From the IMG/VR virus record IMGVR_UViG_3300036820_000010, positions 20,581-84,580 of that record: 64,000 nucleotides of DNA, one strand, 5' to 3'. The stretch is from a virus. The notes under the pieces are model-generated. The model worked only from the letters and a program-made list of their open reading frames with translations, searched no databases and was not told the DNA's origin. A program made the translations under genes and the position numbers. Of the stretch, positions 2,433 through 62,859 are shown piece by piece (position 1 is the stretch's first letter; each line of letters starts with the position of its first letter).

Positions 2433-5211
2433 TCCAAATCCCCCGACCCTCAACCAACCATCCCAAGACGGGTTGTTGAGCAACACACTAGGTTCAACGA
2501 CGACGATCGCTGGGAGCAACTCGATCGTCTTCTCGAGTCACTACAAGAACGCAGCAGGATCTTCTGACCCGATCGCCTGTATCCGCGCGATTGTCAAGCA
2601 GACAGCTCAACTCAACTATGACCCGATGTCAGAAGTCATCCTGTGGGACTCAGGCTGGACTGGAATTCCCCCAGTCCAAAGCATTCCGACTGCTTCCAGC
2701 GAGGCAGGCACTCCAATTTCCGGAACTTACAAAGACCGGGTCTACATCATGTTCTCGGGCCAATCAGGGTCGAACGTGGGATCTGGGAACGTCTGGAGTG
2801 CTTCAGTCAAGGGGGGAATGGTTGGGACCTGGAGGCAGGAAAACTCCTTAGGCCCGACTTCTAACTGGTTTCCAACTGGAGCACTCGGGACCTCTACCTA
2901 CCTAGCCGGATGTACTCAACTCGTCGGGTACAAAGGCTGGTTGTACGTCTGTGTAACCCCCCAGGGATCTCCTGGGACTACAGCAGTTCTTCTAGGCGCA
3001 CCCATCAACCTGAACGGGTCCTTGGGCAACTGGGAATTTCTGGCTACCGCACCCTACAACTTGCACTCCAACGGTATGATGTGCGTTGGGCGACCTAACC
3101 GAACGTCTCCATCCCCAACCACAGCACCCGGAAACCTGTTCATCATGGGCGGGTACAACACTTCCGGAAACCAAGTTTCCAACTGTTCATCTTGTTACTT
3201 GAACTCTGATGGAACGTTATCTGCAGGAACCACCGGATCCTGGTTCGCCCAGAGCGCGATGCCAATTGCCCGTCAGAACGGGCAGGTCTACTACGACAAC
3301 AACTACCCTTACATCTACATAGTCGGAGGAGATTCTGGCGCAACTCCGGCCAACCTGACTATCGGGGGTTCGATCAACAACTCCGATATTGTGACCTGGT
3401 CTTCCAACATCACCAACGGAACTTTGGTCGCTAACAAGACCCTAGGCGCACTCGTCGTCACCCTAGGCCCTGACTACGCTACCCACTTCTGGTACCTAGG
3501 CGGGTGCGCGACGACCGCCGGCGCCCAGACATCAACTGTCTACCACACGCAACTAACTTCTCCTGGAGCCTGTACAGGTTGGACTACTGCAGCATTCTCT
3601 CTGCCTCAAGTTCCTACAGCGACCAACTGGGCTCCCCAACTCTGTGCCTGGTCAGGCTCGACACCTGGGGCCTCGGCACCTGGAATCAACCAGTTGGCCT
3701 CACCAGGGACAGTAGGTATCGGAGGAGAGACTGTCTCTGGAGCCTTCCCGGCGACGATCGGGGAAACTGGAGACGCGTCGGGTACGACAGGTGCTCTTCC
3801 CTGGATCGCTTACATGTACCAGGGGTCTACTGTCGAGTCAAACTCTCCCCACTCAACTGTTCCTGCTTCTTGGAAATCAGGCAACGCTCCGGGTTTAGCA
3901 GTCTCAGACCTAGGTGGGTCGACCAAAGCCTCGATTACCAGTAACCTAGATGGGTCGCAAGATATCGAGTTCTGCTTTAGGGGTTGGGGAGGAATCCAGG
4001 CCTTAAGTTCAAACGCTGCCTATGCTGGGGGAGTCCAAGCCCAGAACGGGTACCAGATAGAACTTGAAGTTCAGTATATCTCGATCCAAGGAGGAATCTC
4101 CTCGATCGGGTACGCAATGCTCAACTGCGGGCAAGGCCCAACCCTGTCCAACGTCACCCCAACTGGAACGGTGACCAATGCCCAGCCTACCCTTGGTTTT
4201 GCCTTCATCCAAGGCATCGGGGGCAAGGGTGAGTACACCTACGACATCCAGGTGAAGAATCCCTCAGGCACAGTCATCTTCGACACCGGACTTCTCCACG
4301 ATAACGTCAACTCAATTCAGTTGAAACTAGCCCAGTTACTGGCCAAGTCGACCACCTATACCCTGGTCATCTCTGTCTTCTCCCAGGATACTGTTTACCC
4401 TGGATCCTACAACTACGTTGTCTCAAGTACGACGTTCACGACATCTGCATTCTCGACACCCAGTGCACCGACCGGGTTCACTGCTGTCAAGACCGACACC
4501 AACGGAAGCGTAGCCCTCAACTGGTCGTCGGTCTCAGGGGCCTCCTACTACCGGGTTTACTGGAACCCAGCAAGTACCGGATGGCTACTCTACGCTGACA
4601 ACGTGAGTGGAACCTCCTACACAGCCATGGACAGGCTCCCAGTTGGAATGTCAGTCCAGTGGGCGGTGTCGGCAGTCAATGCAGTCCCAGGCGAGGGTTC
4701 GATGTCTTCGACAGTAACTACTCAACTCTCGCCTGGGTACTGGTCTGCCTACTTGCACGTCGTGGGCAAGGGAACTACTTACGGGATCGCCTCCCAGATC
4801 CAAGACACTCCCAACATCACCGAAACCATCGATTCGACATCTCTCTTGGCCATGGGCCAGGGTGCCCCGATCACCCGCTATGGCGAGAACGACTATCGAC
4901 AGGTCCAAGGCAACGTCCTCCTGATCGACGCTACACCTGCCTCGATCCAGTCTTTTCAGGCAATCATGGACCAGGTCAAGGCAGGAGGGGTTTGCTACTA
5001 CCGAGACGCTATCGGAGGCTGTCTCCCCTGCACCTTCGACAACTCCCAAGGACTGACCATAGTCGGACCTTGGAACCGTCAGATAGCAGTCAAACTCACC
5101 GAAGTAGCCGACCTTTCTGGTCCGTATATCGGGACTGGATACGCAGTCGGGTACCAGACTCTAGTCAACGGAAGAGTCCCACCCATTGCTACTGTCGAGA
5201 GACTACTCTGA
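2425..5211 (+). CDS. Minor tail protein (Kelch/beta-propeller-like repeats, FN3 domain, Dit-like C-terminus)
   Basis: G/S/T-rich 928 aa; Kelch-like 'LFIMGG', 'IYIVGG', 'WYLGG'; FN3-like 'PSAPTGFTA...LNWSSVSGASYYRVY...VSAVN'; follows TMP. Confidence 0.7.
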   Translation: MANPNPPTLNQPSQDGLLSNTLGSTTTIAGSNSIVFSSHYKNAAGSSDPIACIRAIVKQTAQLNYDPMSEVILWDSGWTGIPPVQSIPTASSEAGTPISGTYKDRVYIMFSGQSGSNVGSGNVWSASVKGGMVGTWRQENSLGPTSNWFPTGALGTSTYLAGCTQLVGYKGWLYVCVTPQGSPGTTAVLLGAPINLNGSLGNWEFLATAPYNLHSNGMMCVGRPNRTSPSPTTAPGNLFIMGGYNTSGNQVSNCSSCYLNSDGTLSAGTTGSWFAQSAMPIARQNGQVYYDNNYPYIYIVGGDSGATPANLTIGGSINNSDIVTWSSNITNGTLVANKTLGALVVTLGPDYATHFWYLGGCATTAGAQTSTVYHTQLTSPGACTGWTTAAFSLPQVPTATNWAPQLCAWSGSTPGASAPGINQLASPGTVGIGGETVSGAFPATIGETGDASGTTGALPWIAYMYQGSTVESNSPHSTVPASWKSGNAPGLAVSDLGGSTKASITSNLDGSQDIEFCFRGWGGIQALSSNAAYAGGVQAQNGYQIELEVQYISIQGGISSIGYAMLNCGQGPTLSNVTPTGTVTNAQPTLGFAFIQGIGGKGEYTYDIQVKNPSGTVIFDTGLLHDNVNSIQLKLAQLLAKSTTYTLVISVFSQDTVYPGSYNYVVSSTTFTTSAFSTPSAPTGFTAVKTDTNGSVALNWSSVSGASYYRVYWNPASTGWLLYADNVSGTSYTAMDRLPVGMSVQWAVSAVNAVPGEGSMSSTVTTQLSPGYWSAYLHVVGKGTTYGIASQIQDTPNITETIDSTSLLAMGQGAPITRYGENDYRQVQGNVLLIDATPASIQSFQAIMDQVKAGGVCYYRDAIGGCLPCTFDNSQGLTIVGPWNRQIAVKLTEVADLSGPYIGTGYAVGYQTLVNGRVPPIATVERLL

Positions 5212-5324
5212 TGGACCGTCTAGGATCAGATCTCTTCAAGATCATGACTTGCGGAACGATCCTTGTAGTCATCTTAGTCTTGATCATCATCGGCCTTGGG
5301 ATCACGTTAGTCGCTGTCCACTGA
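5211..5324 (+). CDS. Small single-TM protein (37 aa)
   Basis: MDRLGSDLFKIMTCGTILVVILVLIIIGLGITLVAVH; start overlaps the upstream stop and fills the gap between tail genes. Confidence 0.5.
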   Translation: MDRLGSDLFKIMTCGTILVVILVLIIIGLGITLVAVH

Positions 5325-5325
5325 G

Positions 5326-7514: not shown

Positions 7515-7515
7515 G

Positions 7516-10986: not shown

Positions 10987-11772
10987 ATGCTAGTCACCTC
11001 AGGTACCCTGGTCAGGAGATACCAAGAACTCGACACCAATCCCTATGGACTAGGCAGGCACATGGTCCTAGACGCCCGCTCACTCGACTACACAGTCGAG
11101 AGAGATGAAGACAAGATGGCGACTTCGGTCAAGCCAGTTACCTGGTTGCCCTCTATCCCGATCCTTAACCAAGGCCAAGTCGGATCCTGCACCGGAAACG
11201 CCTCGACCTACCACCTGTCCAACCTGTATACCAAGAACCTACCCAAATGTGTCCTAAGCAAGGACACCCTGTCTACCTCGACACCCAACCAGAACGAGAA
11301 GTTCGCCCTAGAGGTCTACCATGAGGCGACCACCGACGACGGCCTAGGCCCCCCTTACCCACCCAACGATCGCGGGTCATCGGGCCTCGGAGCCTCGAAG
11401 GCTATGCTCTCGGCCAAGTTGATCACCCAGTACACCTGGGCGACCACACTCGAAGGCTGGATGGTCCTGATGCAGACTAGGGGGACCATCATCGGGACTC
11501 CCTGGTACCAGGCCTTCTTCGAGCCTGACTCTAACGGGTTCATCGACTCTGACCCGTCTTGGGAGCAATCAGGCATCGCAGGTGGGCATGAGATCTACAT
11601 CTGCTCTCTAGAGGCTTGGAATCCAATAGACCCGTCTAAGTCGGTAGTCGCCTTCCCCAACTCCTGGGATACTTCCTGGGGAGACCAAGGCTATGGGAGG
11701 CTCCACCTCTCGACCTACCTCAAACTGCAGTCCCAGATAGACGTCAAGCAGTTTGAACTGACCCCTGCCTGA
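10987..11772 (+). CDS. Papain-like cysteine peptidase (C1 family)
   Basis: Catalytic motifs 'NQGQVGSCTG', 'GGHEI', 'NSWDTSWGDQGYG'. Confidence 0.85.
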   Translation: MLVTSGTLVRRYQELDTNPYGLGRHMVLDARSLDYTVERDEDKMATSVKPVTWLPSIPILNQGQVGSCTGNASTYHLSNLYTKNLPKCVLSKDTLSTSTPNQNEKFALEVYHEATTDDGLGPPYPPNDRGSSGLGASKAMLSAKLITQYTWATTLEGWMVLMQTRGTIIGTPWYQAFFEPDSNGFIDSDPSWEQSGIAGGHEIYICSLEAWNPIDPSKSVVAFPNSWDTSWGDQGYGRLHLSTYLKLQSQIDVKQFELTPA

Positions 11773-12915: not shown

Positions 12916-15376
12916 CCCACCTGAGGCCCACCTTCAATTTACTGTCAAAAGGAACTCCTGTCCCAGGCAAGATCTTTTGGCCTGCCTCACTCATCGTCTT
13001 CTTGATGTAGGGGATGAGGTCTTCAACCAGGTCGTTCCTGACTTCCAAGTAAATCGCGTCATGGATAGAAAACAGGACGTAGGCCCCCTTAGGCAAGTTC
13101 TGGTGCAGGTCGATGAGGGCCCGAATACAAATGTCAGAAGCAGTACCTTGGATAGGAGAATTGAACGCCTGCCTCTCGATCGAACCTTTGTCCTTGCGTT
13201 GGACTAGGGGGAATCTGCGCCTGCGACCTAGGGGGGATTCGACCATCTTATCCCGCAAGGCCTTCGCCTTGACTGAAACCATGTAGTCCCGCAAAACAGG
13301 AAACCCGTCTAGGAACTGCCTCAAAAAGAACTCTGCCTCTTGAATCGTCCACCAATGCTTACCCGGGGGCAAGAACTCAAACTCAGACCCCTCAACTAGA
13401 GCCTTTGCTGTTCTACCGTAGAGAATCCCGAAGTCAGCCCGCTTAGCAAGGTCCCGGTCAAAATCATCGACGTCTTCTGGAGGCTTGGAAAACATCATGG
13501 CCGCAACTTCTCGGTGCACATCCCGCCCCTCAACAAAGGTAGCTATGAGTTGAGGATCTCCGCAAAGGGCTGCTGCAACCCTGAGTTCGAGTTGCGAGAA
13601 GTCAGACTCCACCCAGGTATACCCTGGAGTAGGCACAAACGCCTTGCGAATCTCTGTCCCTAAGAGTTGGGGGATGTTTTGGAGATTGGGATTTGAACTT
13701 GAGATGCGTCCAGTTGCGGTCCCGATGATCCTGAAATCTGAGTGGATTCTCCCATTGTCTCCAACCCGGGCGAGGATCCCGTTGATGTAGGTCTTGAGAG
13801 TCTTTTGGCGCTCCCGGTAATGAATGATCGCCTGGAGACCCGCCTTGACCTCAGGATCCTGGGCAGTAGTAGAAAGTGCATGCAGCACCGTCCTGTTGGT
13901 GGTCGTCGCGGATTTGGCCCGTGAACCCGATACATCACCAGTGACTTTTGCCTTAGCCGACCTCCACGTCTCGTAGACAAGTTTCTTGACCTGCAGAGGA
14001 GATCCTGGGTTGAAGTCGTCAAACCCGTACTTCTTACCTAAGACCTTGAGGTCCTGGAGTCTCTTCTCGACATCGAGTTCAACTTCCTTCTGCAGGGACT
14101 CTAAATAGGGGATATCGACCTGGACACCTCGCAACTCGATGTCAGAAAAGGCCAAGGTCGCCGGAAGAAGAAGGTCCTCGGCTACCGCGAGGAGTTTAGG
14201 GGATTCTTCTTCGACTTCATGGCGTAACTTGGCTGCGAGTTGTGCAGTATAGTAGACATCCTTTGCCTGGTAAGCGTAGAGTTCAGGCAAGGCCACCTTC
14301 TGGTCCGCGGGCGTCATCTTGTAGTAAGCAGGAAAGTCGAAGTCATACCCGTCATCGTCGTAGTGGACCCTAGCCAAGGCCTTCAACCCATGGATCTTGA
14401 AGCGCCCAATCGGCCTTTCGTCTAGGCAGTACGACCAGGCCATGGTGTCGGCTAGACGGGGGGGATGCAAGTATTCCCCAAACAGAATATCAAGGAACTG
14501 CAGATCAAACTTCATGTTGTGCAGGACCAGAGTGCCTCTCTGCACTCCACCCATCAGAACCGCGTGCATGACGCGGAGAGAACGCGGATCTGACAAGAGG
14601 TCAGGGGGGACGATGACAGCCTGGTTCCCCGCACAGAACCCAACTGAGATGATCTTGTCTCGCAACGCCTCGACACCCATCGTCTCGATGTCACAGGACA
14701 AATAACCTGTCTGCACCGAAGACTCGACTAAGCCCGGAGGATGCCCTGAGACTCCGAGTAGAAAATCTTCTACTCCCTTCCCGGTCGCTGGAACTGTCAA
14801 CTGAATATTGGGTTCTGGGAGAGGAGAATCATTCGCCAACCACTTCTCGATGTCGTTGGCGAAGTCCCGGAAGACATCAGGATCACGTAAAACGGCAGAG
14901 GGATGGTAAGTCGGGACAGTATAGATCTGTCGCCCACCCCAAGTCGTATAGATCCCCCTGCCTCTCTGCGTCGTGATCGTGGCCATACGCGACAGACGAG
15001 TCGCTGCCGTCAACCCAACACCCCCGACAGTCAGGATCTTCTTGGGGTTGACCAGGCAAACCTCACTCTCTAGACGGGATGCGCAAACCTGAATCGCCGA
15101 GATCCCAGGAAACTTGTTTCCTGGGGGATAACAGAGGATAGTATTAGTGAAGTAGACCTCATCGAGATCAACTCCATGCCCCTTGAGTGTCGAGCGCAAG
15201 AGTTCTCCCGCGGGTCCGACAAAGGGAAAACCCCTAGCCGCCTCGATACCTCCTGGAGCCTCCCCTAAGATCAAGAGACCATCCCCTGACCCGTTTCCCT
15301 GGACCAGAGGACTATCCTTGAGGACACAATTCTCACATCTTGCAGGTAGGTCTGGGTTGAGTTCTCGACGAGGCAT
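12791..15376 (-). CDS. polA: DNA polymerase A with N-terminal family-4 uracil-DNA glycosylase domain and 3'-5' exonuclease
   Basis: UDG4: 'CENCVL', 'LGEAPG', 'PFVGPAG', 'TYHPSAVLR'; ExoI 'DIET'; Pol motifs 'TATGRISSSNPNLQNIP', 'DFSQLELR', 'AKRADFGILYG', 'IHDAI'. Confidence 0.95.
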   Translation of the reverse strand: MPRRELNPDLPARCENCVLKDSPLVQGNGSGDGLLILGEAPGGIEAARGFPFVGPAGELLRSTLKGHGVDLDEVYFTNTILCYPPGNKFPGISAIQVCASRLESEVCLVNPKKILTVGGVGLTAATRLSRMATITTQRGRGIYTTWGGRQIYTVPTYHPSAVLRDPDVFRDFANDIEKWLANDSPLPEPNIQLTVPATGKGVEDFLLGVSGHPPGLVESSVQTGYLSCDIETMGVEALRDKIISVGFCAGNQAVIVPPDLLSDPRSLRVMHAVLMGGVQRGTLVLHNMKFDLQFLDILFGEYLHPPRLADTMAWSYCLDERPIGRFKIHGLKALARVHYDDDGYDFDFPAYYKMTPADQKVALPELYAYQAKDVYYTAQLAAKLRHEVEEESPKLLAVAEDLLLPATLAFSDIELRGVQVDIPYLESLQKEVELDVEKRLQDLKVLGKKYGFDDFNPGSPLQVKKLVYETWRSAKAKVTGDVSGSRAKSATTTNRTVLHALSTTAQDPEVKAGLQAIIHYRERQKTLKTYINGILARVGDNGRIHSDFRIIGTATGRISSSNPNLQNIPQLLGTEIRKAFVPTPGYTWVESDFSQLELRVAAALCGDPQLIATFVEGRDVHREVAAMMFSKPPEDVDDFDRDLAKRADFGILYGRTAKALVEGSEFEFLPPGKHWWTIQEAEFFLRQFLDGFPVLRDYMVSVKAKALRDKMVESPLGRRRRFPLVQRKDKGSIERQAFNSPIQGTASDICIRALIDLHQNLPKGAYVLFSIHDAIYLEVRNDLVEDLIPYIKKTMSEAGQKILPGTGVPFDSKLKVGLRWGEAKSWNSSAYLQEKDAEEEKSEANSKRRNDSAYRKPRLVH

Positions 15377-15380: not shown

Positions 15381-15710
15381 TCACTCAGGTTTCGGCATAG
15401 ACGACGTCTCCGAGACAGCAGTTAGGTTCTGCAACCATGCCTCTGCTCGAGGATCCGGGATCAACTGCCAAATGCATACCGGATGAATAGATTTGACGAT
15501 CTGTCCATCAACTGCACATCCAGGAGACAACTCGCAGTGCCCATCTTCCGTCCAGGCACGCAATAATTTACGCCCCTTGGTGTTCTCGACACCATCAGGG
15601 TCCTGGCATTCACCCCCGACCAGATGGCAATCAAAGGCAGCCAACCCATGAAAATGCCGTCCACAAGACCCACAGTGATCAGTGCACGTCTGGCGTATGA
15701 CTCTTGGCAT
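15381..15710 (-). CDS. Zn-binding phage protein (FDxH-type)
   Basis: 'HCGSCGRHFHGLAAFDCH...C'. Confidence 0.6.
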   Translation of the reverse strand: MPRVIRQTCTDHCGSCGRHFHGLAAFDCHLVGGECQDPDGVENTKGRKLLRAWTEDGHCELSPGCAVDGQIVKSIHPVCIWQLIPDPRAEAWLQNLTAVSETSSMPKPE

Positions 15711-16173: not shown

Positions 16174-16993
16174 CGGGACCTCCTTGGGCTAGAGTAGCAA
16201 AAACAGACGCATTTGCCTTGGCCAAGGCCAGTTCCTCCTCGGTCAGGACCCAAGAAAAGTAATTTAGAGGACGAGTCGGGTACTCTGGAACCTTACCCCC
16301 TGCCTTGAGCCTGATCCCTGCCTTTGCATAGCAGAAGGGCTTTGCACTGTCAGTCGATCGAATCCACGGAAACTCACTAGCCATGTCGCCCAAGACCCAG
16401 AGTTGCCTCCCCCAGCCTAGAAGGTGCACCTCGACACCATCATTTTCGACCAAAGGCAAGATGTCATCGCGGAGAATCTTAGGAACCCCACCTTCCCATA
16501 TCTCGTAGTCCTTAGACACTCCGACGGTCGGGGGTTGGGTGAAGATCTCAGGGTAGACCTTGTGATGTCGGGCCCACTGCATCATCAAACCGAAGAGGCA
16601 GGACTTGTAGTCCTTGTAATCCTCGCCCTGCGGGACCAGCATCAACTTCGGGACAGGAAGTTCTGTCTTCGCGGCAAAAGTAAAGAACTCCTTAGCCTTG
16701 GACAGGGTCTCCATGCTCTTGAACAAGTGATCAGGAACAACTACCTCGTTGGACTTGACTTCACTCGCATGCTTGAGTAGATTAGTTGCCTGGGCCCCTG
16801 CAGTAAATTCGTGGGCACTGTTGTCAAGTATTAAGTAAGCCCCCTCTTTCTTCTCCCGCATGTAGTGATCCCGGTACGCCTTGCGGTTCATCATGTGATC
16901 GAGTAGAAGGTGGTACTTAGAGTGCCCGAATCGATCTAGATGGGCAGTAGGCGGGATCAGAGCAACGAACATTCTAGGAGCGTCTCCATACAT
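16109..16993 (-). CDS. TGT/DpdA-like TIM-barrel protein, candidate 7-deazaguanine transglycosylase (likely start 16972)
   Basis: 'LILDNSAHE', 'VVPD', 'VPQG', 'VHLLG', 'RSTDSAKP' follow the order of TGT/DpdA motifs (DSG, D, H.LG, S.DS); lies within the que cluster. Confidence 0.6.
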   Translation of the reverse strand: MYGDAPRMFVALIPPTAHLDRFGHSKYHLLLDHMMNRKAYRDHYMREKKEGAYLILDNSAHEFTAGAQATNLLKHASEVKSNEVVVPDHLFKSMETLSKAKEFFTFAAKTELPVPKLMLVPQGEDYKDYKSCLFGLMMQWARHHKVYPEIFTQPPTVGVSKDYEIWEGGVPKILRDDILPLVENDGVEVHLLGWGRQLWVLGDMASEFPWIRSTDSAKPFCYAKAGIRLKAGGKVPEYPTRPLNYFSWVLTEEELALAKANASVFATLAQGGPGASSGLHRQETETQDRPVRRF

Positions 16994-22474: not shown

Positions 22475-22960
22475 CTACTTGAACGACCGCCTGACCTGCT
22501 GATTCCCCTTGAACGGGGAGGCAGCATCACCTCCCGCAGGAACTGCCTCCGCGACCTGAGGCGTTTCTCCAACCGGGACCAAATCCTCGACCCGAGAGGT
22601 CATCCGCCCCTGGTACTTCTCGTTGCGGACCGAGGCAACCGCAGGCAACCCATCGAAGGACGGATCAAGGAGCATCCCTGTCCCATCGTCGAAGTCGAGG
22701 TCCAACGACTGCGCCTCGATCCCGAAGTTCTGGAAGACTGCCTGCAACCGGAACAGGGCCTTAGGCGAGAAGGAAGTCATCATGTACAGGGTTCGGCCTT
22801 CGAACTCACCTGACACGATGGTCAACTTCCAGTTGAGGTAAGGAAATTCAGACCCCTCCGACTGCCTCTGCTCGACCGAGTCGATCAGGACCTCGTACTT
22901 GCCGGGTTTGACCGGGGTCTGAACCTCGACACCAGAGAAATCGAGAGTATACTTAGACAC
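22475..22960 (-). CDS. DUF669-like phage single-stranded DNA-binding protein
   Basis: 'LDFSGVE...VKPGKYEV', 'YLNWKLTI..GEFEGRTL'; downstream of the Sak4-like gene; GTG start with GGAGG RBS. Confidence 0.75.
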   Translation of the reverse strand: MSKYTLDFSGVEVQTPVKPGKYEVLIDSVEQRQSEGSEFPYLNWKLTIVSGEFEGRTLYMMTSFSPKALFRLQAVFQNFGIEAQSLDLDFDDGTGMLLDPSFDGLPAVASVRNEKYQGRMTSRVEDLVPVGETPQVAEAVPAGGDAASPFKGNQQVRRSFK

Positions 22961-23162
22961 TGGCTTTCGCCTCCTCGTGAGCCGGGAGCAACAGAAGATT
23001 GCCCCGTGGGTACTGCGCCGACTTGAGTCTGAAGACCCAGTACTGGGCCATGACGTCCCCATACTGCACTCCTCCAAACTCCCCCGGCGGGTTCTTGGCC
23101 ACCGCAATCTGCTCGATGGCGAGGGAGTTGACCATTTTCTCCCAGGTTACCCGAGACAACAT
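22953..23162 (-). CDS. Hypothetical protein
   Basis: Coupled ORF between the Sak4-like and SSB genes. Confidence 0.5.
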   Translation of the reverse strand: MLSRVTWEKMVNSLAIEQIAVAKNPPGEFGGVQYGDVMAQYWVFRLKSAQYPRGNLLLLPAHEEAKASV

Positions 23163-24016
23163 CAGGCCTTGACCTTCTGCTTCTTGAGGACTTCATCGGC
23201 GAGGGCACCTGCCTCTTGGGGAGTCATCTTCTCGATGGGTTGGACAGCATCACCATCTTCTGCGCGGACAGCCGGAGTCTCCGCGGGCGGGCCCCCAGGG
23301 AAGTGTAGAACGTCGAGCAACTTGGTCACCGTCGGATCATCCAAGTACTCTGGGATCACATCTCCCCAACGGGTCCGTGCCTTGACTCGGAACTGCGAGA
23401 ACCCGGACAGGAGAAGAGACCTAGTCTCTTGCATGGTCCCATCAGACCCTCGTTCCTGAGAGATAGCGAAGTACCCCGCGACATCGAACAGCCCAGGAAG
23501 TTCCTCGGCCAACTGCCCTGCGAGAGCAGGAACCTTAACTGCTCCTACTCTCGGTTCGACGACTTCTTTAGACAAAGAAGTCATGAAGACGTGCATCGGA
23601 AGGTCACGGAAGGACCTGACGAAGCGCCTCATCTGGACAGTTGCCTTACCGTAGTCCTGCTGCTGCAGAGCGTTCGGGTCGTTGCGTCTCGCCTGCTCCC
23701 CTTCTAGGATGTCGAGGAGGGTGAAGATGTGAGTTTCTGATAGAGAGTCGATGCAGATCGATTGGTAGGGAAGATTCGATCGCGGCGACTCGAGCTCAGA
23801 ATAGACTTGAGAGTACGTATCCCAATCCCGAATCTCGACCATGTCGATGTCGAGACCAGCGAGAGTTTGAGATCCCCCCTCAAAGTCCAAGAACAAGACG
23901 GGAGACGTCCTCGGATCGAGTTGAGCAGTACCTAAGAAATGGGTCTTGCCTGCTCCTGCGGGCCCAAAGATCAACGCCTTCAAGAAGCGCCCCTGGTCGG
24001 GTTTGATTATCTTCAA
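23162..24016 (-). CDS. Sak4-like (AAA_24) ssDNA-annealing ATPase
   Basis: 'LIFGPAGAGKT', 'FLDFEGG', 'ICIDSLSE', 'QDYG'. Confidence 0.85.
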   Translation of the reverse strand: MKIIKPDQGRFLKALIFGPAGAGKTHFLGTAQLDPRTSPVLFLDFEGGSQTLAGLDIDMVEIRDWDTYSQVYSELESPRSNLPYQSICIDSLSETHIFTLLDILEGEQARRNDPNALQQQDYGKATVQMRRFVRSFRDLPMHVFMTSLSKEVVEPRVGAVKVPALAGQLAEELPGLFDVAGYFAISQERGSDGTMQETRSLLLSGFSQFRVKARTRWGDVIPEYLDDPTVTKLLDVLHFPGGPPAETPAVRAEDGDAVQPIEKMTPQEAGALADEVLKKQKVKA

Positions 24017-24077
24017 GTCTTGGATCTCCAGACTTACGAATGAACGAAGGGACGGGCCTCAATCATTATAGATGGAG

Positions 24078-25115
24078 TTACCATCTCCTGTCAGGGTTGA
24101 TCTTGAAGTTCGCCCCAAGTAAGTGCTGATGGTCGGACCCGTCTTCCATCGCCTGGCAAACCTGCAAGAAATCACACCTGGGACAGTGCAAAGCAGACGG
24201 GGAAGGATACGCCTTCTCTGGATACTTAGAAATATCCAACATGTCCTTGAAGACATAGAAGAGATGTTCTTCATAAGCCTTGATTTGAGCGAGGTTGCGA
24301 GACGTAACTTCTCTGTGGAAGAAGGGATCCCACCCACGAGTCTTGAGAGCGTTCAGGGCCTGGATATGCTTGCTCGATCGAGTCAAGTCGAGTTCGACCA
24401 TCTTCGAGTAGTACCACCCGTGCAAGGTGAGTTGATCCTTGGCTGTCGAGAGAGACCCGTCTTTCAGGAGGCGGGGGAGGTTCGGGACCTTCTTCAAGAG
24501 TGTCTCGTAGACCACACCCTTGAACAGTTCCCCAGTCAGGCGCCAGAAGGAGTAGTAGTACCCAGTCACCTGGTCGTCGAGGTCTAGGCCTCGGCCTTGG
24601 GTCCAAACTTGCGCCCCTGTCTTGTAGTCGACCAGGTACAAGTCTGAACCTTCAGAAGCAATCCGGTCCATCCTCGCCGTCAACCTAGGTCTTGACTTGA
24701 GAGTTGCTCTCCCCGTCGAGGTTCTGATCGGGACCCACACTCTCCGTTCCAAAGAAACCGTCCTGAGTTGCAACGAGGTCCCCCGGTCGAAGGCAGCGTA
24801 GTTGCGCAACATCTCGACACCAAGCGGTTTGTAGGCGTAGATGTCGTTCTCTACCCACCCCCACAGGCCCCCATACTCCTGCTGCAAGTCGACGATCGAC
24901 GAATCAAACTCCTTCTCGAACTCGTCGATCGTGGCTTGCATCGAGTAGGATCGCCCGTACTCCTCTAACGCATGGTGGATCAAGGTCCCGAACCACAGAC
25001 GGTCATCCGGTTTCTTGAGTTGGTATCCAAGATAAGAACCTAGATACCACTGGCGCCTGCACTCCTTGAACTGACCGACTTCGGTCACCGAAACTTCATC
25101 AAGAGACCTTGGCAT
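24078..25115 (-). CDS. Cas4/RecB-like PD-(D/E)xK exonuclease with Fe-S cysteines
   Basis: 'ECRRQWY', 'FGTLIHHALE', 'ARMD...LVDYKT', 'Q...Y', 'HCPRCDFLQVC'. Confidence 0.85.
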   Translation of the reverse strand: MPRSLDEVSVTEVGQFKECRRQWYLGSYLGYQLKKPDDRLWFGTLIHHALEEYGRSYSMQATIDEFEKEFDSSIVDLQQEYGGLWGWVENDIYAYKPLGVEMLRNYAAFDRGTSLQLRTVSLERRVWVPIRTSTGRATLKSRPRLTARMDRIASEGSDLYLVDYKTGAQVWTQGRGLDLDDQVTGYYYSFWRLTGELFKGVVYETLLKKVPNLPRLLKDGSLSTAKDQLTLHGWYYSKMVELDLTRSSKHIQALNALKTRGWDPFFHREVTSRNLAQIKAYEEHLFYVFKDMLDISKYPEKAYPSPSALHCPRCDFLQVCQAMEDGSDHQHLLGANFKINPDRRW

Positions 25116-40335: not shown

Positions 40336-40562
40336 CGACCGCCTCGCCACCGTCTCGAGATGGTGTGAGACAGCATGACCCGGTCCATGTCCGACGACCG
40401 CCTCGTGGGGGGCCATAAGAACGAAGTTCTGGCCCCTAGCGAGACGGTCGGAGTGGACCCTGAATGACCGGCGAGGTGGTCACTAGCGACCGTAGCGACC
40501 GCCTCACTCCGGTCGCAACGGTCGCAGAAATTTAAGGAAACTCCCCAAAACCGACCGCCTCG
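40336..40562. repeat. Iteron-like repeats (4x CGACCGCCTC plus inverted GGTCG copies), putative replication origin
   Basis: Copies at 40336, 40395, 40496 and 40552, in non-coding DNA directly after the primase-helicase. Confidence 0.6.
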
Positions 40563-40575: not shown

Positions 40576-41232
40576 TTGAAGACCAGCCTCTATCGGTTTT
40601 TCGACAGACAGGGAAACCTACTCTACATCGGGATTTCAAAGGCCCCCCTCCAACGCCTCCTGCAGCATCGGGAGGAAAAACTTTGGTGGGAAGAAATCGG
40701 AACCATCAAACTTGAGTTTTTCGAGACCCGAGAAGAAGCCCTCTTCCAAGAATTTACCGCAATTCAAGCAGAACAACCCAGGTACAACATCCACAGTAAA
40801 AAACTTAGGCAAGTTTCCCCCAAACTAGGGAATGCACTACCTTCTTCCCTTCTGCCTACTGAACTCATATTCGAAGGGGAATCCAAATTAGGGTGGAATC
40901 TACCTGACGACTGTCCCCACTGTGAACTTCCAGTGTCTCCGGTCAAGATTGATCTCCTAACCGGAGAATGTTTCTACTCCTGTCCTACCTCCCAACTCAC
41001 CTGGACCTGCCGTTGGGGACTCGAATACAACTTGGGTAAAAGGACCTTCTCAAACCTGAAAAACTTAACTAGAGGAATGAGCAAAGTAATCCAAGTCCCT
41101 GGAGGCTATGCCTGCACCCAAGAAGACCTCAGAGAACTTAAGACCCTCAACCTAAAATTTCCTTCTCCCCTTAGAAGATGCTGGAAAGGTTGGGATGGGA
41201 AGTTTTATGGGTTCACTCAAAACCTCCTATAA
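40576..41232 (+). CDS. GIY-YIG nuclease domain protein
   Basis: 'LYRFFD..GNLLYIGIS....RL.QH...K.WW', 'E..AI..E.PRYN'. Confidence 0.8.
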   Translation: MKTSLYRFFDRQGNLLYIGISKAPLQRLLQHREEKLWWEEIGTIKLEFFETREEALFQEFTAIQAEQPRYNIHSKKLRQVSPKLGNALPSSLLPTELIFEGESKLGWNLPDDCPHCELPVSPVKIDLLTGECFYSCPTSQLTWTCRWGLEYNLGKRTFSNLKNLTRGMSKVIQVPGGYACTQEDLRELKTLNLKFPSPLRRCWKGWDGKFYGFTQNLL

Positions 41233-41265: not shown

Positions 41266-41571
41266 GTGCACCCGAAAGACATCGTCGTCGACCAGTTGTA
41301 CAGTCGAACTTGGCAAGCAGTCGAGACAACCCCTGAGGCCCAGGAAGCCCACCGGGAGTTCATCAAGTTCTGGGTCGACTGGCTGACCGAAGAAAGCAAC
41401 GGCGAATTCAGGCATCAGCGGGCAGAACCTTTGATGGCACTCCCCTCGATCATCGGGCAACACCAGGAGATCAAGGCACTCCCTCCGCGGACAAACCCGG
41501 AAAACAACCCTATAGCCCAACCGCCCTCGGTGTCGAGGCGACAGCGTAGCCCGAAGGCGAAAGCAGAGTGA
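41266..41571 (+). CDS. Hypothetical protein
   Basis: RBS AGGAG; TATAAT upstream. Confidence 0.5.
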   Translation: MHPKDIVVDQLYSRTWQAVETTPEAQEAHREFIKFWVDWLTEESNGEFRHQRAEPLMALPSIIGQHQEIKALPPRTNPENNPIAQPPSVSRRQRSPKAKAE

Positions 41572-41918
41572 AGTACGCCTCAACCGTCGATGAAGCAGCA
41601 GGTATCCTGAAGGTCTCCTCGCCTACCGTCAGGCGTTGGTGCATTTCAGGAAAACTCAAAGCAGTCAAGTTTGGAGACTCCTGGATGATTGATCTGAACC
41701 CGAGCCCGTCCAAGGATCATCCCGTCTACCGCAAAGTCAAGGACGACTCGAGGGGAGTAACTCCTGTCTACTTCATCGTCTGCGACGAGGGCTACCGGGA
41801 GTCGATTGTCTGCGATGGGATGTACGAGTGGGCAGCCGATTGGTTGCTCGAGGTTTTGGGCCGACGACCTTATGCCCCAAGACATCGGCCTCAGGAGTCG
41901 GTCCATAGTGGGACCTGA
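41568..41918 (+). CDS. Excisionase-like HTH (HTH_17) protein with C-terminal extension
   Basis: 'TVDEAAGILKVSSPTVRRWCISGKLKAVKFGDSWMI'. Confidence 0.8.
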   Translation: MKYASTVDEAAGILKVSSPTVRRWCISGKLKAVKFGDSWMIDLNPSPSKDHPVYRKVKDDSRGVTPVYFIVCDEGYRESIVCDGMYEWAADWLLEVLGRRPYAPRHRPQESVHSGT

Positions 41919-42213
41919 ACTCAACTTTTCTGGTGTCGAGAACACCCCGGGCGAACACTTCTCTGGGCGTCCTAAGGCCTGGTGCTGTGACTGCCGCGAA
42001 TGGTGCTACCCTGATCCTGAACTGCACTGCGGTTGCTGCACCGACTACCTGAAGTCCATCGCCAGGCGCCCCTCGATGAGTTTTCGTTGGTATGACCTGT
42101 GGGTAGGGGCCTACTTCGATCAGGAGTACCAGCGCCTGTTCATCTGCCTTCTTCCGACCTGGGTCCTACGCATCGACCTGCGCTGGTTTGCGAGGCGACA
42201 CCAGAAAGGGTGA
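41806..42213 (+). CDS. Hypothetical Cys-rich protein (likely start ~41872)
   Basis: 'WCCDCREWCYP...CGCC', 'WYDLWVGAYFD'. Confidence 0.5.
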   Translation: MSAMGCTSGQPIGCSRFWADDLMPQDIGLRSRSIVGPELNFSGVENTPGEHFSGRPKAWCCDCREWCYPDPELHCGCCTDYLKSIARRPSMSFRWYDLWVGAYFDQEYQRLFICLLPTWVLRIDLRWFARRHQKG

Positions 42214-42244
42214 TTCTGCCTCCTTGGTGTCGAGAGGCTGTCAC

Positions 42245-42465: not shown

Positions 42466-42825
42466 TTCTTTTGTGGTGTCGAGATTGAAAACTTCCTCTG
42501 CCTTCCAAGCGAGTTCTGCAGTTTTTGACCAAGAACCTCATCCAACCCGAGGACTTTGTCTTGTTCTCGTAGGCGACTTTACTCCCGCAACTACTCAGCC
42601 TTATAACCTCAGGTTAGATGCCATGAGTTATCAACCCGGAAATTAATACAGAATCTTCCCCGATTGCGCAGATGATCATTATCAGACCAAAACTCAAGGG
42701 TACTCGAGCATAAGGTCCTAGTCTTGCCCAATGTCTAAGAACAACGTACCCTTCCCACATAAGGCAAAGGGATGATCCTAGGATAACTCCTCGAATAACC
42801 CAGGGTCATAAGGTTTGTAGAGGCC

Positions 42826-44960: not shown

Positions 44961-45168
44961 TCGACTCCTCCTTCTCCTTGTAGGTAATGACTACAGAGAG
45001 GAGTTGCTTCGACTTGGTGTCGAGGGACCAACAGGTCCGGTCGACTCGTCTTGATGCTCCATCCAAGAAGTAGTTTAGCCAGTCTAGAGGAACCAAAACC
45101 AAGGAGATACCTATACACAGGAGCGCTTCTCCCCAAGGCCGGTCTGAGAGAAAGGCCTTGATCATCAA
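44953..45168 (-). CDS. Hypothetical membrane protein
   Basis: MIKAFLS start coupled to the upstream stop. Confidence 0.4.
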   Translation of the reverse strand: MMIKAFLSDRPWGEALLCIGISLVLVPLDWLNYFLDGASRRVDRTCWSLDTKSKQLLSVVITYKEKEESSE

Positions 45169-45635
45169 GAAGCCCTTTCCACGATCGTCCCACAGTGGGC
45201 GCAAGGAGTTCCGAGTACCTGGTCTGGTGTCGAGCAAGCCTGGCAGACCTGCGGATCCCAGGAGATCACCCAACCCAGATTGAAGCGGGCGTGACGATAC
45301 TCCTCGAGGGCGTCTAAGTTCACTCCGTATCCCCCTCTCGTCGGAGGTGAGGAGATCAGGTGGTCGTAGGCCTGTCCGTACTGGACCCAGGCCTGGTCGA
45401 GATTCAGTCGCTTACCCACTGTCGAGGCAGCATAGACCTCGAGGTACAGGCGGGAGTTCTTCATCGCTTCGTGGTAGGTCCGGTACTTGGCTCGGTACTC
45501 TAGATCTTCTAGGGTCAGGTGGGACTTGATTACAGGCCTGACTTTCTGGGGGCCCCTAAGAGAAGTTCTGCGCCGGTTAGGCCGGTAGAAGCCTCTAATC
45601 CCGGGAAACAGTGGGAACGAGATCCCGAAACTCAT
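45165..45635 (-). CDS. Hypothetical protein with C-terminal Zn ribbon
   Basis: 'CQAC...CAHCG'. Confidence 0.55.
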   Translation of the reverse strand: MSFGISFPLFPGIRGFYRPNRRRTSLRGPQKVRPVIKSHLTLEDLEYRAKYRTYHEAMKNSRLYLEVYAASTVGKRLNLDQAWVQYGQAYDHLISSPPTRGGYGVNLDALEEYRHARFNLGWVISWDPQVCQACSTPDQVLGTPCAHCGTIVERAS

Positions 45636-48075: not shown

Positions 48076-51000
48076 CTATCCACCTCGAATTGTAGTACCC
48101 GAGGATACCTCCCCAATGATCGTCGTCGAGGGGGAACTTCCCTCGATCGAACTCGAGTAGGCCCGAGTAGTCGTCAAGAGTCCCTTTGATTTCAGTGCGG
48201 CTGTCATAGAAATATCGGTAGAAATCGTACCCGAGACCAAGATCTTCTCGACAACCTGACCGATGAGAACAGATTGCGCAGCAAGTTCTCCGATCAGGGA
48301 AACCAAGGCAGCGAGTTCTCCTTGGGCCTCAGAAGTTGCTTGAATCGAGCCTTGGACCTCTAGTCTGAGACCTGATTCGATGGCTGAAGTCAGGCCAGTG
48401 ACTGTCTCGATAGTCCCGACGACCCAGTAGATAGCCACTGAGTCGCCACTAAGTTCCGAGGCAGAAGAAATCTGACCCTCGACAGCAAAATCTTCCGATA
48501 GTTCCGAGGCAAGAGCGCTTCCGGCCGAGATCGTGCCTTCTAGACTTATCGCGACAGATGGTGTCGCCTGCAGGCCTGTCTCGGCTGGGATAGACCCGTC
48601 AACTCCTGTCCCCGAAGACTCAGTAACACTAGCCGAGACTTCAGATTCTGCCTCAAGACTTCCGGTCAAACCCCCAGAAACTTTGGGTTCTGCACTGAGA
48701 TCTGTCCCGGATACTATAGATCCCTCGACTGAGATGACTACAGAAGGCGTAGATCCTAGGGAAGTCTTTGCCTCTAGTCCCCCAGTAACCTGATTCCCTG
48801 AAGTTTGCGACTCGGTCGCTTCAATCTGGGTAAGGGAAAGTATAGACCCAGTCAAGTCTATTCCGATTGCGGGTGTCGCTTCTAGGGAAGTTTCTGCACT
48901 GACGATCCCGGATTCTTCTTCTGTTGCCTTGATCGTACCTGTGAGTGCAGTCGAATCTTGAACTTGCGAGATCAGAGAGACTTGAACTGCAGGCGTCGCC
49001 TCAACTGCTGCCGAGGCAACCAAACTTCCAGTTTCACTCTCGACAACAGTTGGGGTCGAGGTGAGGCTCGACTCGGGTTCAACTGAACCCGAGATCGACT
49101 CTAGGGCACTAGCAGTACCGGATAGGTCCGACTGAGATGAGATAGACCCGGTCAGGGGGACAACGGAAACCGGGGAGAATGCCTCAACATAGGCGGTATA
49201 AGGAGCAGTTGCCCCGTTCGTGTTCCCCCAGTTGACCTCTAAGACGTTGGTCCCAGATCCCGAAGGCCCGTCTAGAACGACCCAAGTCTGGACCGGAGGG
49301 TTGGTCGTCGGAGAAGACAACCCGACCAAGGTCTGCAACTTTCCGGCAGCGACCGGATTCCCGCCTGCGTCAGTCGCGTAACCCATGATGGCCGAGACGA
49401 CCAGATCTCCAGGAGATGCCGAGGTTACCTCGACACCAGCAGATTGGTTGAGGTCAGTTTGAGCAGAATCCTCAGAGGCACTGACATCTACTCCTAGGCT
49501 AGAAGTGATCATGCCGAGGTCCAAAGAGGAGTTGCCTGATGTCCCAGGAGTGTGAGTCATACTCACGGTGAGCCCAGAAGATGCGATCGCCGAACTTGCT
49601 ACCGCCCCCCAAACACTCTGCCGAATATGGTTAGACCCATTGACTTGATCCCCTGAGTCGTTGAGTTGAGACCAGGTGAGGCCTCCCCCAGACGGAGAAG
49701 AGACACTCCCCGCCAATCCTGTAAACCCAGTATCCGACGCGCGCAAGCGCAGAATCGCACCTGCTGGGATCGCGCCTAGGCTGTTGGTGATCGTCGGAGT
49801 GATCGAAGAGTAGCCCAGGTTCTGGCCTAAAAGGGTAAACTCTGCGCTTGGGGTCCCCAAACCTGCGCCTGCAGGATTCAACGAGAGTGCGAACCCGACC
49901 CAGGTCGAGGTCGCAGATGCTGTCGTCGAGACGGACTGGTTGGATCCCGCTGCCTGTCCGTCGGAGTCAAACCAGGCCATAGGAGAAGAGGAGGCCCTCT
50001 GGGTCAGTCCACTGGGTGTCGAGAAGGTGAAGTTAGATACTGAGTAGGGAACAAACCCGATGACTGCCCAGTTTTGGTTCTGGACCTGGAACTGATTCGA
50101 GGCGACAGGAGAACCTGTACCCACCCCTGCGAAGACGACTGAGTAATCCTGGTTGGTGTAGGGAGTAGTGTTGTCTATGCCTCGATAAGCACCTGCCTCG
50201 ACTCCAGAATAGCAAGCAGTCGGGGTTCCTGATGCAGCAAAATCAAAAGTTGGAGTAGGAGTCGATCCTAACCCCCAGTAGACAGCGTTTTTCAGACCCG
50301 CGTTGTCAGAAGACCCGATCAAGGTCCAGCCTGAAGGCGCTGCGGGTACGTCAGGAGCAGTTGCCCCGTCCCAGTAGACGTGGGCGAAGATGACGTCTGT
50401 AGTTTGCAGAAGGCCCCCGCCCAACAGGGGTACCGTGACCGAGTTGGCAGGAGAGGTGTTGATCGAATCGTCCCAATCGACGAAGTCTACTCCAACTACT
50501 CCTCCGTGGGCAGTTCCAGCCAACTGAGATGCAGCAGAGATGGAACCGGTCAAGGCAATCTGTTCAGACAGGGTGCCTGCTAGTTGCGAGGCAGGCGCAG
50601 AAGACGCAGTTTCGGCAACTGCTGCCTTGACGGCTGCGGTCAAAGCCGTCTGATCTTGGACAGTACCCGTGATCGACGACCCAGTAGTCTTAGAATCTAC
50701 CCCGGAGATGGTGCTTGCTGCCGTGATGCTGCCCGAGACTGCAACTGCTATATGGGGAACCGCATTGACTTGAGAACCCGCGGACAAGGCAGCATTGACA
50801 GCTTCTTTGGAAGTTGGTGCAGAGGTGAGACCAGTAGTAGAAGAAGAACTTCCGGATAGTTCTTTTCGAGCAGAAACAGACCCTGCTAGAGTAGAGGCTG
50901 AGGCAACTGAACCCGAGACGTTATCTGTAGTTCCAGTAGGTGAGAACTTGAAGGTGGCGACTGAACCCGCGTACCCAGAAGTTGAACTCGAGAAGGAGAC

Positions 51001-57426: not shown

Positions 57427-57717
57427 ATGGGAACGTTGCGCGCAGGAGGCGAGAAGCGAGGCAACTCGCGTGATCGTCGCAACCGCAAGGTGTGGATGCT
57501 GCGCACATGGGACAATGACCTGGGTGTCGAGGCATGCCGTTGCGTGCATTGCGCACGAATCGGCAGAGAGACGATCCTCGACATCAAGGGTGTCGAGGCA
57601 GATCGCATCGTCCCCGGAGCGTCCTATGCCCATGACAACGTGCAACCGTCCTGTCGATCGTGCAACCTCGCCCGATCGAACAACATCGCCTGGGCACCGC
57701 AAGGCGCCTTCGCCTAG
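57427..57717 (+). CDS. Small HNH endonuclease, leaderless
   Basis: 'RGNSRDRRNRKVWML', 'CVHC', 'EADRIVPG.SY..DNVQPSCRSCN'; TTGACA-N17-TATGAT promoter just upstream. Confidence 0.8.
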   Translation: MGTLRAGGEKRGNSRDRRNRKVWMLRTWDNDLGVEACRCVHCARIGRETILDIKGVEADRIVPGASYAHDNVQPSCRSCNLARSNNIAWAPQGAFA

Positions 57718-58152: not shown

Positions 58153-58445
58153 TGCTCGTGCCCAAGGTCGTCCCGTCCGATGGTGTCGAGGAGGCGTTCG
58201 CTATGTCGCGTGTTTCGCGTTTCGCGTTTCGTGTTTTCACGGTCGTGACGTTCGTCCCTATGGGCGCCCTCTTAGTCCTAGGGGCAGGCATGGTCACGGG
58301 TGTCGCGCGCGTCGATCGCGTGTCGGAGCAGGTCGTGGGTGTGTCCGCGGGGCAGTTCGATGCCTCTCGTAGTGTCGAGGAGCACTATTGCTCCCTCGAC
58401 GTGATGTCAGGTCGTGTCATCGTGTCGTGTCAGGAGGCGAACTGA
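58152..58445 (+). CDS. Membrane protein
   Basis: One TM segment. Confidence 0.45.
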   Translation: MLVPKVVPSDGVEEAFAMSRVSRFAFRVFTVVTFVPMGALLVLGAGMVTGVARVDRVSEQVVGVSAGQFDASRSVEEHYCSLDVMSGRVIVSCQEAN

Positions 58446-61590: not shown

Positions 61591-61864
61591 CTCGACACCT
61601 ATCCCGATGGGTGTCGAGGGTGTCTAGGCCTACCCCTTGTTCTGCGCGCACAGGTCGACGCTCTGACACGGAACTGCGCACCCCGCACAGGTTGATGGAG
61701 TACGAGAGAGCGCGTCGGAGCGTCGAAGACACGACGCGGAGAGACGGGCGTAGCGACGCGAAATCGCATACCCTTAGTGGGTACACCCCCGTAAGAGAGA
61801 TTGCGGCTGCTCGCGTCGAAATTTCCTGTTGACATTTCCCGGGGTGATGTGCGATACTATAAAT

Positions 61865-62224: not shown

Positions 62225-62309
62225 GCATAAGGAAGGACAGGCACCTGCAATGCCCGTCCCATCGTCGTGATATGACACACCCCCGTTGCAGGCGGGAGTT
62301 GAGGGTCGT

Positions 62310-62549
62310 CTAAGCGGTCGTGCCCATGGACACGTCGCCCATGATGTTGGGGTCGACGACGATGTCGAGATGCGCGACGTTGACGCGCACGAACGCCTCG
62401 ATCCCGTGATCCTTGATCGAGGAGTCGTCCTCGTCGGTCGCGAGGTAGGTGGCGAACTCGTGTCGCGCGTCGGCGGCGTTGCGCGCCCGCACGATCGACA
62501 CGTAGGTCCCGTCCCCGTCCGGGGTGACAACGATGTATGCGTTTCCCAT
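62310..62549 (-). CDS. Hypothetical protein, leaderless
   Basis: Minus-strand TTGACA-N17-TATAAT, then ATGGGAAAC (MGNAY). Confidence 0.65.
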   Translation of the reverse strand: MGNAYIVVTPDGDGTYVSIVRARNAADARHEFATYLATDEDDSSIKDHGIEAFVRVNVAHLDIVVDPNIMGDVSMGTTA

Positions 62550-62859
62550 TACTATGATTATAGGGGGTCGGGGGCATCCTGTCAACCCCGAATTTTCGTT
62601 CGTGCACGCGTGCGTGCGCACGTGTCGCTTGTCAACCGCGTTTTCGCGTTTCGTGTTTCGCGTTTCGTTTACAACATATCGCGATAGTGTCGGGAACCCC
62701 TAGGGGACCTCGACACCCATCTCTGCCCACGCAGACCCTGGGCGTCTCGCGTCACAGCCGGTCGCTGCGACACGAGAAGGCACGCCCCGATAGATTCGTC
62801 GGCCGAGAGATTCTCGCGTCGGAGATCGCGTCTCTCCGCGTCGAGGTGACCTGGTGAAT

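Follow-up and report, generated by a model that had tools for sequence, protein, structure and literature searches.

The DNA studied here is a 64,000-nucleotide (nt) stretch, hereafter the window, of an uncultured soil phage contig of 84,580 bp and 54.8% G+C (IMG/VR record IMGVR_UViG_3300036820_000010), and the element in question is the 9-mer GGTGTCGAG, which is written through this genome in an orientation that depends on its position. The window covers bases 20581–84580 of the contig. Genome coordinates refer to the whole contig, and window coordinate 1 equals genome 20581. IMG/VR gives the contig as linear, with a completeness of 88% as estimated by CheckV, and the phage is present in two soil metagenomes, with no RNA data set listed for it.

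Genes for HK97-type head proteins, a portal, a protease and tail proteins occupy the plus strand from genome 10.9 to 32.3 kb. A replication and recombination block occupies the minus strand at window 12.3–38.2 kb and encodes PolA fused to a UDG-like domain, an SNF2 helicase, MoxR, a VWA protein, a Sak4-like AAA_24 ATPase, a PD-(D/E)XK Cas4-like exonuclease (PDDEXK_1) and a DUF669 protein. TerS, an intein-bearing TerL and a head protein are encoded on the minus strand at window 51.6–55.7 kb, and an early region with consensus TTGACA-N17-TATAAT promoters extends over window 56.7–62.6 kb. A sigma70_r4-like protein is also encoded (window 28154–28474). Searches for tRNA genes and Rfam families gave no hits.

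Copies of the 9-mer and their excess over chance

The exact copies in the window are listed below in window coordinates. The reading frames named are Gly-Val-Glu (GVE), Leu-Asp-Thr (LDT) and Ser-Thr-Pro (STP).

3657..3665, minus: copy, antisense in a 928-amino-acid (aa) tail-region gene; absent from the earlier note
4452..4460, minus: copy, antisense in the 928-aa gene
11029..11037, minus: copy, antisense, LDT frame
11277..11285, minus: copy, antisense, STP frame
14669..14677, minus: copy, sense (GVE), PolA gene
15585..15593, minus: copy, outside called genes
16430..16438, minus: copy, sense (GVE)
22925..22933, minus: copy, sense, DUF669 gene
24813..24821, minus: copy, sense, PD-(D/E)XK Cas4-like exonuclease gene
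25526..25534, minus: copy, sense
27636..27644, plus: copy, antisense; polarity exception of the left arm
32367..32375, minus: copy, non-coding; final leftward copy before the switch
41529..41537, plus: first rightward copy; opens a four-copy cluster
41932..41940, plus: copy, non-coding, context CTTTTCTGGTGTCGAGA
42226..42234, plus: copy, non-coding, context CCTCCTTGGTGTCGAGA
42475..42483, plus: copy, non-coding, context CTTTTGTGGTGTCGAGA
45016..45024, plus: copy, antisense to a minus-strand gene block
45226..45234, plus: copy, antisense
49429..49437, minus: copy, sense, 1153-aa gene; polarity exception of the right arm
50015..50023, plus: copy, antisense, 1153-aa gene
57523..57531, plus: copy, early region
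57589..57597, plus: copy, 66 bp after the preceding one; inverted partial copy CCTCGACA before it
58182..58190, plus: copy, sense (GVE)
61591..61618, both strands: back-to-back inverted pair CTCGACACC-N10-GGTGTCGAG, near the second (converging) switch
62709..62717, minus: copy, leftward, close to the right contig end

The window thus holds 26 copies and the whole contig 32 (19 on the minus strand and 13 on the plus strand), which corresponds to one copy per 2.6 kb, approximately 15–30 times the density expected by chance. An earlier note on this stretch, made by eye, had listed 25 copies; all 25 positions are exact, and the copy at 3657 was the only one missed. Its estimate of about one chance copy agrees with dinucleotide shuffles of the window (0.97 ± 0.96, maximum 4), and an order-3 Markov model predicts 2.1 copies in the genome. 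GGTGTCGAG is the most frequent 9-mer of the genome, and GGTGTCGA is followed by G at 32 of its 34 occurrences.

One explanation would be that the word has no function and is a by-product of codon usage (GTC-GAG, CTC-GAC), richness in TCGA and strand composition. GTCGAG is the top hexamer of the genome, TCGA occurs about 2.3 times as often as uniform expectation, and many bacterial genomes contain the word 2–8 times as often as its reverse. The richness in TCGA and GTCGAG is a codon effect, however, which is unpolarised and is covered by a synonymous-codon shuffle as the null model. In 200 such shuffles the genic copies averaged 2.6 ± 1.6 and never exceeded 9, whereas 20 are observed, and 12 more copies lie outside called genes, so the enrichment survives the correction that the earlier note had called for. 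The genic copies occupy four frames, 11 being sense and 9 antisense; the 12 copies outside called genes, an upper bound, fall in 18% of the DNA, an approximately twofold enrichment. Of the 22 Gly-Val-Glu and Leu-Asp-Thr tripeptides in the proteins, 13 are spelled by the exact word, against 6.7% predicted from codon usage, and the word uses the minority codons GGT (20% of Gly codons) and, in the Ser-Thr-Pro frame, ACA (11% of Thr codons). The excess beyond codon shuffling and the use of minority codons in these tripeptides therefore indicate selection on the DNA word itself.

Outside the nine core bases, the copies have T at position −2 in 21 of 32 cases, R at +1 in 28 of 32, and K at −1. We consider it very probable that these weak flanks (T −2, K −1, R +1) contribute beside the core, as part of the selected signal described below. 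Further upstream, C is found at −10 in 20 of 32 copies, and TCGA at −11 in only 5 of 32.

Orientation of the copies and the two switch regions

Below genome 57.5 kb, 16 of 18 copies are on the minus strand, and above it 11 of 14 are on the plus strand (Fisher, 1.9e-4). Splitting the window at 40 kb, as the earlier note had done, gives 12 copies on the left (11 minus, 1 plus, with the added copy included) and 14 on the right (11 plus, 3 minus), and its description of the split holds. The bias is also significant over the whole genome when the best change point is scanned by permutation (p = 0.0012 on a linear map; p = 0.002 for two change points on a circle). Gene direction does not explain it: among the ten genic copies for which the arm and the gene strand predict opposite orientations, eight obey the arm, in agreement with the earlier argument that codon use alone does not explain the polarity.

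Strand composition accounts for part of the bias. Strand-specific Markov models alone predict 59–67% of copies in the favoured orientation, whereas 27 of 32 (84%) were observed (p = 0.003–0.013 against 0.60–0.65). The polarity is genuine yet moderately strong. The 77 copies of one-mismatch variants, which have the same composition, are unpolarised (25:26 and 7:13). After masking of the exact 9-mers, the sub-words GTGTC (77:55), GGTGTC (23:14) and GTGTCGAG (5:7) show no polarity beyond composition. As neither the variants nor the sub-words are polar, all nine bases appear to matter. Together with the codon results, these observations already largely refute the by-product explanation, which we regard as scarcely credible.

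A general excess of G and T marks the same strands as the word, regardless of gene direction; on the left arm, plus-strand genes have a coding-strand GC skew of −0.077 and minus-strand genes one of +0.078. GGT, GTT and GTG are in excess by approximately 1.3:1 on these strands. The heptamer GGTAGGT is also polar on the same two arms (21:2; z = 4, borderline after multiple testing).

The features of the window that bear on the orientation and its possible readers are as follows.

23162..25115, minus: phage recombination module, Sak4-like AAA_24 ATPase and PD-(D/E)XK exonuclease
38418..40310, plus: gp4-like primase-helicase (Zn finger, Toprim_2, AAA_25), within the switch interval
40335..40562, no strand: iteron block with three to four ACGACCGCCTCG and a 16-nt inverted repeat; candidate origin
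40576..41232, plus: GIY-YIG endonuclease with a Cys-rich C-terminal part
41568..41918, plus: HTH_17 DNA-binding protein gene, within the four-copy cluster
63650..64000, plus: right half of a 695-bp GGNNN/GTC repeat array, which continues at the left contig end

The copies change from leftward to rightward in the interval window 32367–41529 (the diverging switch). As the earlier note had proposed, this interval brackets the primase-helicase gene and the iterons; it also holds a divergent promoter region. The exonuclease and Sak4 named in that note were found as the PD-(D/E)XK and AAA_24 genes. Its expectation of a cumulative GC-skew minimum at 40.4 kb holds only roughly: the cumulative G−C curve reaches its minimum at genome 69.4 kb (window ~48.8 kb), some 8–10 kb to the right, and the cumulative T−A curve at genome 62.3 kb (window ~41.8 kb). 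The two arms, which are unequal (~55–60 kb and 20–25 kb), meet at a second, converging switch in the interval from genome 78.8 to 82.2 kb. With an origin at the iterons, the word would be the leading-strand sequence, and hence the lagging-strand template, on both arms.

The copies are clustered. Gaps below 1 kb number 16 of 32 (9.8 expected) and gaps of 1–2.5 kb only 3 (9.5 expected), with p = 0.001 for the joint test. The copies form 14 clusters of 1–4 mostly co-oriented members that are 3–10 kb apart, for example at window 41529–42483 and 57523–58190. No significant regularity was detected in the cluster-to-cluster spacing. The three non-coding copies to the right of the HTH_17 gene have CTTTTYTGGTGTCGAGA in common.

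The array at the contig ends consists of degenerate 18–24-bp units with the consensus GGNNNGGATTGTCGG and includes a G17 run. Its left part, genome 1–335, is outside the window. GTC occurs in the array 40 times on the plus strand and 10 times on the minus strand, and the maxima of the cumulative G−C and keto skews are located at its left-end edge (~genome 330). Because the array spans both contig ends, either the map is circular or the array is terminal. We considered the array as a form of GGTGTCGAG and rejected this, as only T-GTC-G is common to both; it is a separate element.

Taken together, these results make it very probable that GGTGTCGAG is a DNA-level signal kept by selection, with all nine bases needed and read on one strand. 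On each of the two arms it would be carried by the strand rich in G and T; the arms would diverge from the primase-helicase and iteron region (genome ~53–62 kb) and meet at ~79–82 kb or at the contig-end array. The general proposal of the earlier note, a cis signal oriented by its position relative to a putative origin and not by codon use or transcription, is thus upheld.

Possible readers of the word

This geometry suits three readings equally well, namely a Chi-like signal for an enzyme moving inward, a primase or helicase signal, and nicks that point outward. The candidate readers listed in the earlier note are not told apart by the data, and the Chi-like one is the best fit by analogy.

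We tentatively favour, with rather less than even confidence, the reading of the word as a Chi-like nuclease and recombination signal. A helicase-nuclease would gain access to the phage DNA through a broken replication fork or a free end and travel inward to the origin; the enzyme would be of the host RecBCD/AddAB type or, less likely, phage-encoded. It would meet the word from the 3′ side of the word on the 3′-ended strand, and degradation would there stop in favour of recombination or repair. The same-direction clusters of 2–4 copies every 3–10 kb would raise the odds that one of them is recognised. Such a signal would tentatively account for the rank of the word among k-mers, its density, its polarity, its independence of genes and its clustering, and phage precedents exist. 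If the ends or the terminus are at ~79–84.6 kb and the origin is at ~53–62 kb, 27–28 of the 32 copies are oriented to be met from the 3′ side; the argument from active orientation rests on the geometry of RecBCD and Chi (PMC12315714).

Chi ranks first among the octamers of the E. coli lambdoid phage LLS and of phage P1, where it occurs once per 1.9 kb; its orientation is 20:3 in LLS, and the Pseudomonas Chi in phage MD8 is oriented 32:0 (PMC12315714). This accumulation has been explained by its authors as protection from RecBCD together with RecBCD-driven recombination from a free end (PMC12315714). The Chi-rich phages (LLS and relatives, MD8 and P1; PMC12315714, bioRxiv 10.1101/2021.07.08.451572, PMC3784561) resemble the present phage in that one exact short word is the top k-mer, occurs about once per 1.4–2.6 kb at 15–30 times chance, is written through genes and is strongly biased in orientation relative to the DNA ends. 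They differ in that their word is the known 8-nt Chi of the host and in that its orientation is uniform (LLS, MD8) or intermixed (P1). LLS and MD8, moreover, have no recombination module, and their copies crowd toward an end. The phage studied here has instead a 9-nt word that is no known Chi, two opposed domains, and its own Sak4 and exonuclease.

Several points weigh against the Chi-like reading. The word matches no known Chi, and the Chi octamers of E. coli and Pseudomonas have 0 copies in the phage. We know of no described Chi as long as 9 nt. The known Chi-rich phages are unipolar or intermixed, never bipolar; we examined P1 directly as a possible bipolar precedent and ruled it out, its 50 Chi copies (31 plus, 19 minus) being intermixed. 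The copies in the present phage are not crowded at the contig ends, and two of the three nearest the right contig end are in the wrong orientation. No enrichment was seen in 866 sampled genomes, in the listed matches of the pair scan described below, or in IMG/VR, which is weak evidence given that less than 1% of species were covered. The phage also has its own Sak4, exonuclease and SSB-like module, and in lambdoid phages a recombination module goes with few Chi sites (PMC12315714, PMC3784561).

Bacterial Chi and the FtsK-orienting polar sequences (KOPS) and SpoIIIE recognition sequences (SRS) are likewise leading-strand words on both arms, with an orientation that reverses at the origin together with the G/T skew, but they are chromosomal, are read by FtsK/SpoIIIE or RecBCD, and occur once per 5–15 kb (PMC3384302). 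In the phage, the canonical KOPS word is distributed 13:13. Neither a dif-like site nor a translocase is evident, although no systematic search for a dif-like site or recombinase was made.

The nearest match in word length, exactness and density is provided by phage nick sites, so that the word could be recognised by a phage nickase and mark localized single-strand interruptions, in virion or replicating DNA, in the strand that bears it; this is unlikely in our estimate. The nick (sci) sites of T5 and of tf/LUZ24-like and phiKMV-like phages are exact words of about 9 nt, occur about once per 3 kb, are strand-specific and independent of gene direction, and have rare or inactive near-variants (PMC3517423). 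Phage tf, for example, has 14 copies of the 9-mer TACTRTGMC in 46 kb; all are on one strand, even within its convergent gene sets, and near-variants are almost absent (PMC3517423). GGTGTCGAG is similarly an exact 9-mer, present once per 2.6 kb and independent of transcription. The GIY-YIG endonuclease gene lies in the switch interval, its product being the sole candidate site-specific nuclease seen close to the switch, and nicking of the back-to-back pair at 61591–61618 would yield a staggered double-strand cut. Under this unlikely scheme, the 3′-OH ends on either arm would face outward, and the phage PolA could use them as primers for strand-displacement synthesis in the outward direction. 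However, all described systems use a single strand genome-wide, whereas the strand switches once or twice here (19 minus and 13 plus in two domains), and no DNA ligase or HNH nickase was found among ~60 proteins scanned.

The observed geometry would also result if the gp4-like primase-helicase preferentially started or loaded at the word on the lagging-strand template. T7 gp4 primase sites, 5′-(G/T)(G/T)GTC-3′, are 5 nt long and are not known to be over-represented. The word contains GTGTC, a T7 primase pentamer, on the predicted lagging-strand template; it is on the strand along which a DnaB-type helicase would leave the origin, and its orientation is right for both arms if the origin is at the iterons. 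The gene of the gp4-like protein and the iterons stand in the switch interval, with the four-copy cluster directly to the right. Despite these agreements, we judge a priming site distinctly unlikely. Zn-finger/Toprim primases (T7 gp4, T4 gp61, DnaG) read 3–5 nt, whereas only the full 9-mer is polar here and the requirement for nine bases is strict: GTC, [GT][GT]GTC, GGTGTC and GTGTCGAG lack polarity beyond composition once the 9-mers are masked, which leaves a short T7-type site unsupported. The spacing is clustered and not even, with 6–9 kb gaps that include one of 8 kb left of the iterons, and distant relatives with the primase-helicase (28–39% identity) have no comparable word.

The two preceding readings can be joined in the broader proposition that the phage's own replication machinery reads the word, either as a strict 9-nt start or loading signal for the Zn-finger/Toprim primase-helicase or as a nickase site with outward 3′ ends that prime strand-displacement synthesis to both genome ends. 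We hold this to be possible, if doubtful. It would make GGTGTCGAG an autonomous, replication-polar equivalent of Chi or KOPS, and 9 nt would greatly exceed the length of every site known for primases of this class.

The distribution of the copies around the HTH_17 gene suggests another possibility, an asymmetric binding site of a phage DNA-binding protein (e.g. HTH_17, 41568–41918) that would act as a polar roadblock or organiser in the manner of stoperators or Tus/Ter, with an orientation relevant to forks and not to RNA polymerase. The four-copy cluster around this gene, the common 17-nt context of three of its copies, the inverted pair with a 10-bp spacer, the short-range clustering and the twofold enrichment outside called genes are all compatible with such a site. 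The stoperators of Cluster A mycobacteriophages are 13-bp asymmetric repressor sites, of which tens of copies (23–36) flip between the arms, and the copy number in our phage resembles theirs. Their orientation follows transcription, and they are mostly intergenic and degenerate; by contrast, GGTGTCGAG is an exact word with 20 of its 32 copies in genes, and its orientation is indifferent to transcription, so that the stoperator analogy drawn in the earlier note fits poorly. Binding sites usually vary, yet the one-mismatch variants are neither polar nor in excess of the codon-driven TGTCGAG background. No immunity repressor was identified in the phage, which encodes the HTH_17 and sigma70_r4-like proteins. 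To our knowledge, no binding system is polar by replication arm at such a density. We therefore consider a binding site quite improbable.

Finally, the word might be a strand-specific modified mark, as the target of a predicted TGT-fold 7-deazaguanine transglycosylase. It contains TGT, an echo of the UGU read by tRNA-guanine transglycosylase, with a central G between T's. Nothing ties the enzyme to the word, however, and a modification target need be neither polar nor over-represented. Known phage DpdA contexts are short (GA, GGC) in the literature of 2019–2020. This reading appears very improbable. A class I S-adenosylmethionine methyltransferase (Methyltransf_11, E = 1.9e-9) is encoded in the left small-gene region, outside the window (genome 8891–9445, plus strand), and may be relevant to the predicted deazaguanine chemistry.

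A phage genome saturated with a polar recognition word is in itself a known phenomenon; the orientation flip around the likely origin sets GGTGTCGAG apart. Few genome-wide signals give enzymes a travel direction on DNA; polar words, of which Chi, KOPS and nick sites are examples, belong to these few, and phages that accumulate such words show how host nucleases are handled and how replication runs. An exact 9-mer that is forced into minority codons, is bipolar around a primase-helicase gene and iterons, and coexists with the phage's own recombination genes and a genome predicted to carry 7-deazaguanine is a combination not found in the described Chi-rich or nicked phages. If it is the Chi of the host, the word would add a new member of unusual length to the known Chi sequences and would point to that host, with a bearing on protection from RecBCD-linked CRISPR spacer capture. 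If it is read by phage enzymes, it would be a new kind of replication signal.

Relatives, host and strain comparison

The available sequences suggest that the phage has no close relative among cultured or IMG/VR phages. A megablast search of INPHARED with 8 kb gave no match; PolA gave nothing above 28% identity by tblastn and nothing in IMG/VR. The profile search with the primase-helicase retrieved 6 metagenome and 52 IMG/VR loci at 23–39% identity, none of which is enriched for GGTGTCGAG or has a comparable polar 9-mer of its own. The closest primase-helicase homologue is P0002 (44% identity), from a JGI contig of 19 kb.

The inverted pair of the word has 38 matches in IMG/VR, about the chance level, and none is in an enriched sequence. 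When the direct pair was sought in 185,579 species genomes (GTDB), the only multi-copy loci among the matches listed (at least 120) were tandem coding repeats and period-8 palindromic inserts. The latter occur in a metagenome-assembled genome of Phycisphaerales (L140:5000–7800), where (GGTGTCRA)n inserts recur about every 0.9 kb, apparently in coding sequence, and provide 11 word copies in 3 kb. They resemble repetitive extragenic palindromes (REP) or miniature inverted-repeat transposable elements (MITE) and have no relation to the phage.

Among the 866 sampled genomes, which cover less than 1% of species, none approaches the density of the phage; the highest value is one copy per 12.8 kb, in a genome where the word shows no polarity. 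The taxon draws of this sample overlap (the phylum of G004 and the class of G556 share G008, G012, G028, G032, G036 and others), so no phylum can be excluded. The tallies take in the unpublished genomes G407, G279, G304, G595, G844 and G695. An Atlas search with the capsid protein yielded no hint of the host.

Some further features of the genome were recorded. A Pfam scan of window 16109–16993 returned no match. Neither Pfam nor PHROG gave a match for the 1153-aa protein (window 48076–51537, minus strand), whose gene is flanked by the head-protein gene and a small gene. AGCGG/CCGCT occurs ~28 times per strand in the whole genome against ~83 on uniform expectation, a threefold under-representation, and GCTGGTGG and GCTGGCGC have zero occurrences in the whole genome.

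The strain in the second soil sample is ~1.7% diverged. Its four copies at 41529–42475 are unchanged in a piece with 31 differences per 1.2 kb; as ~0.9 changes would be expected in these copies, the conservation is not significant (40 of 348 strain differences were listed). Window 53306–53972, the LAGLIDADG intein part of TerL, has no contig cover in the related strain from the second soil run, which suggests a presence/absence polymorphism of the TerL intein.

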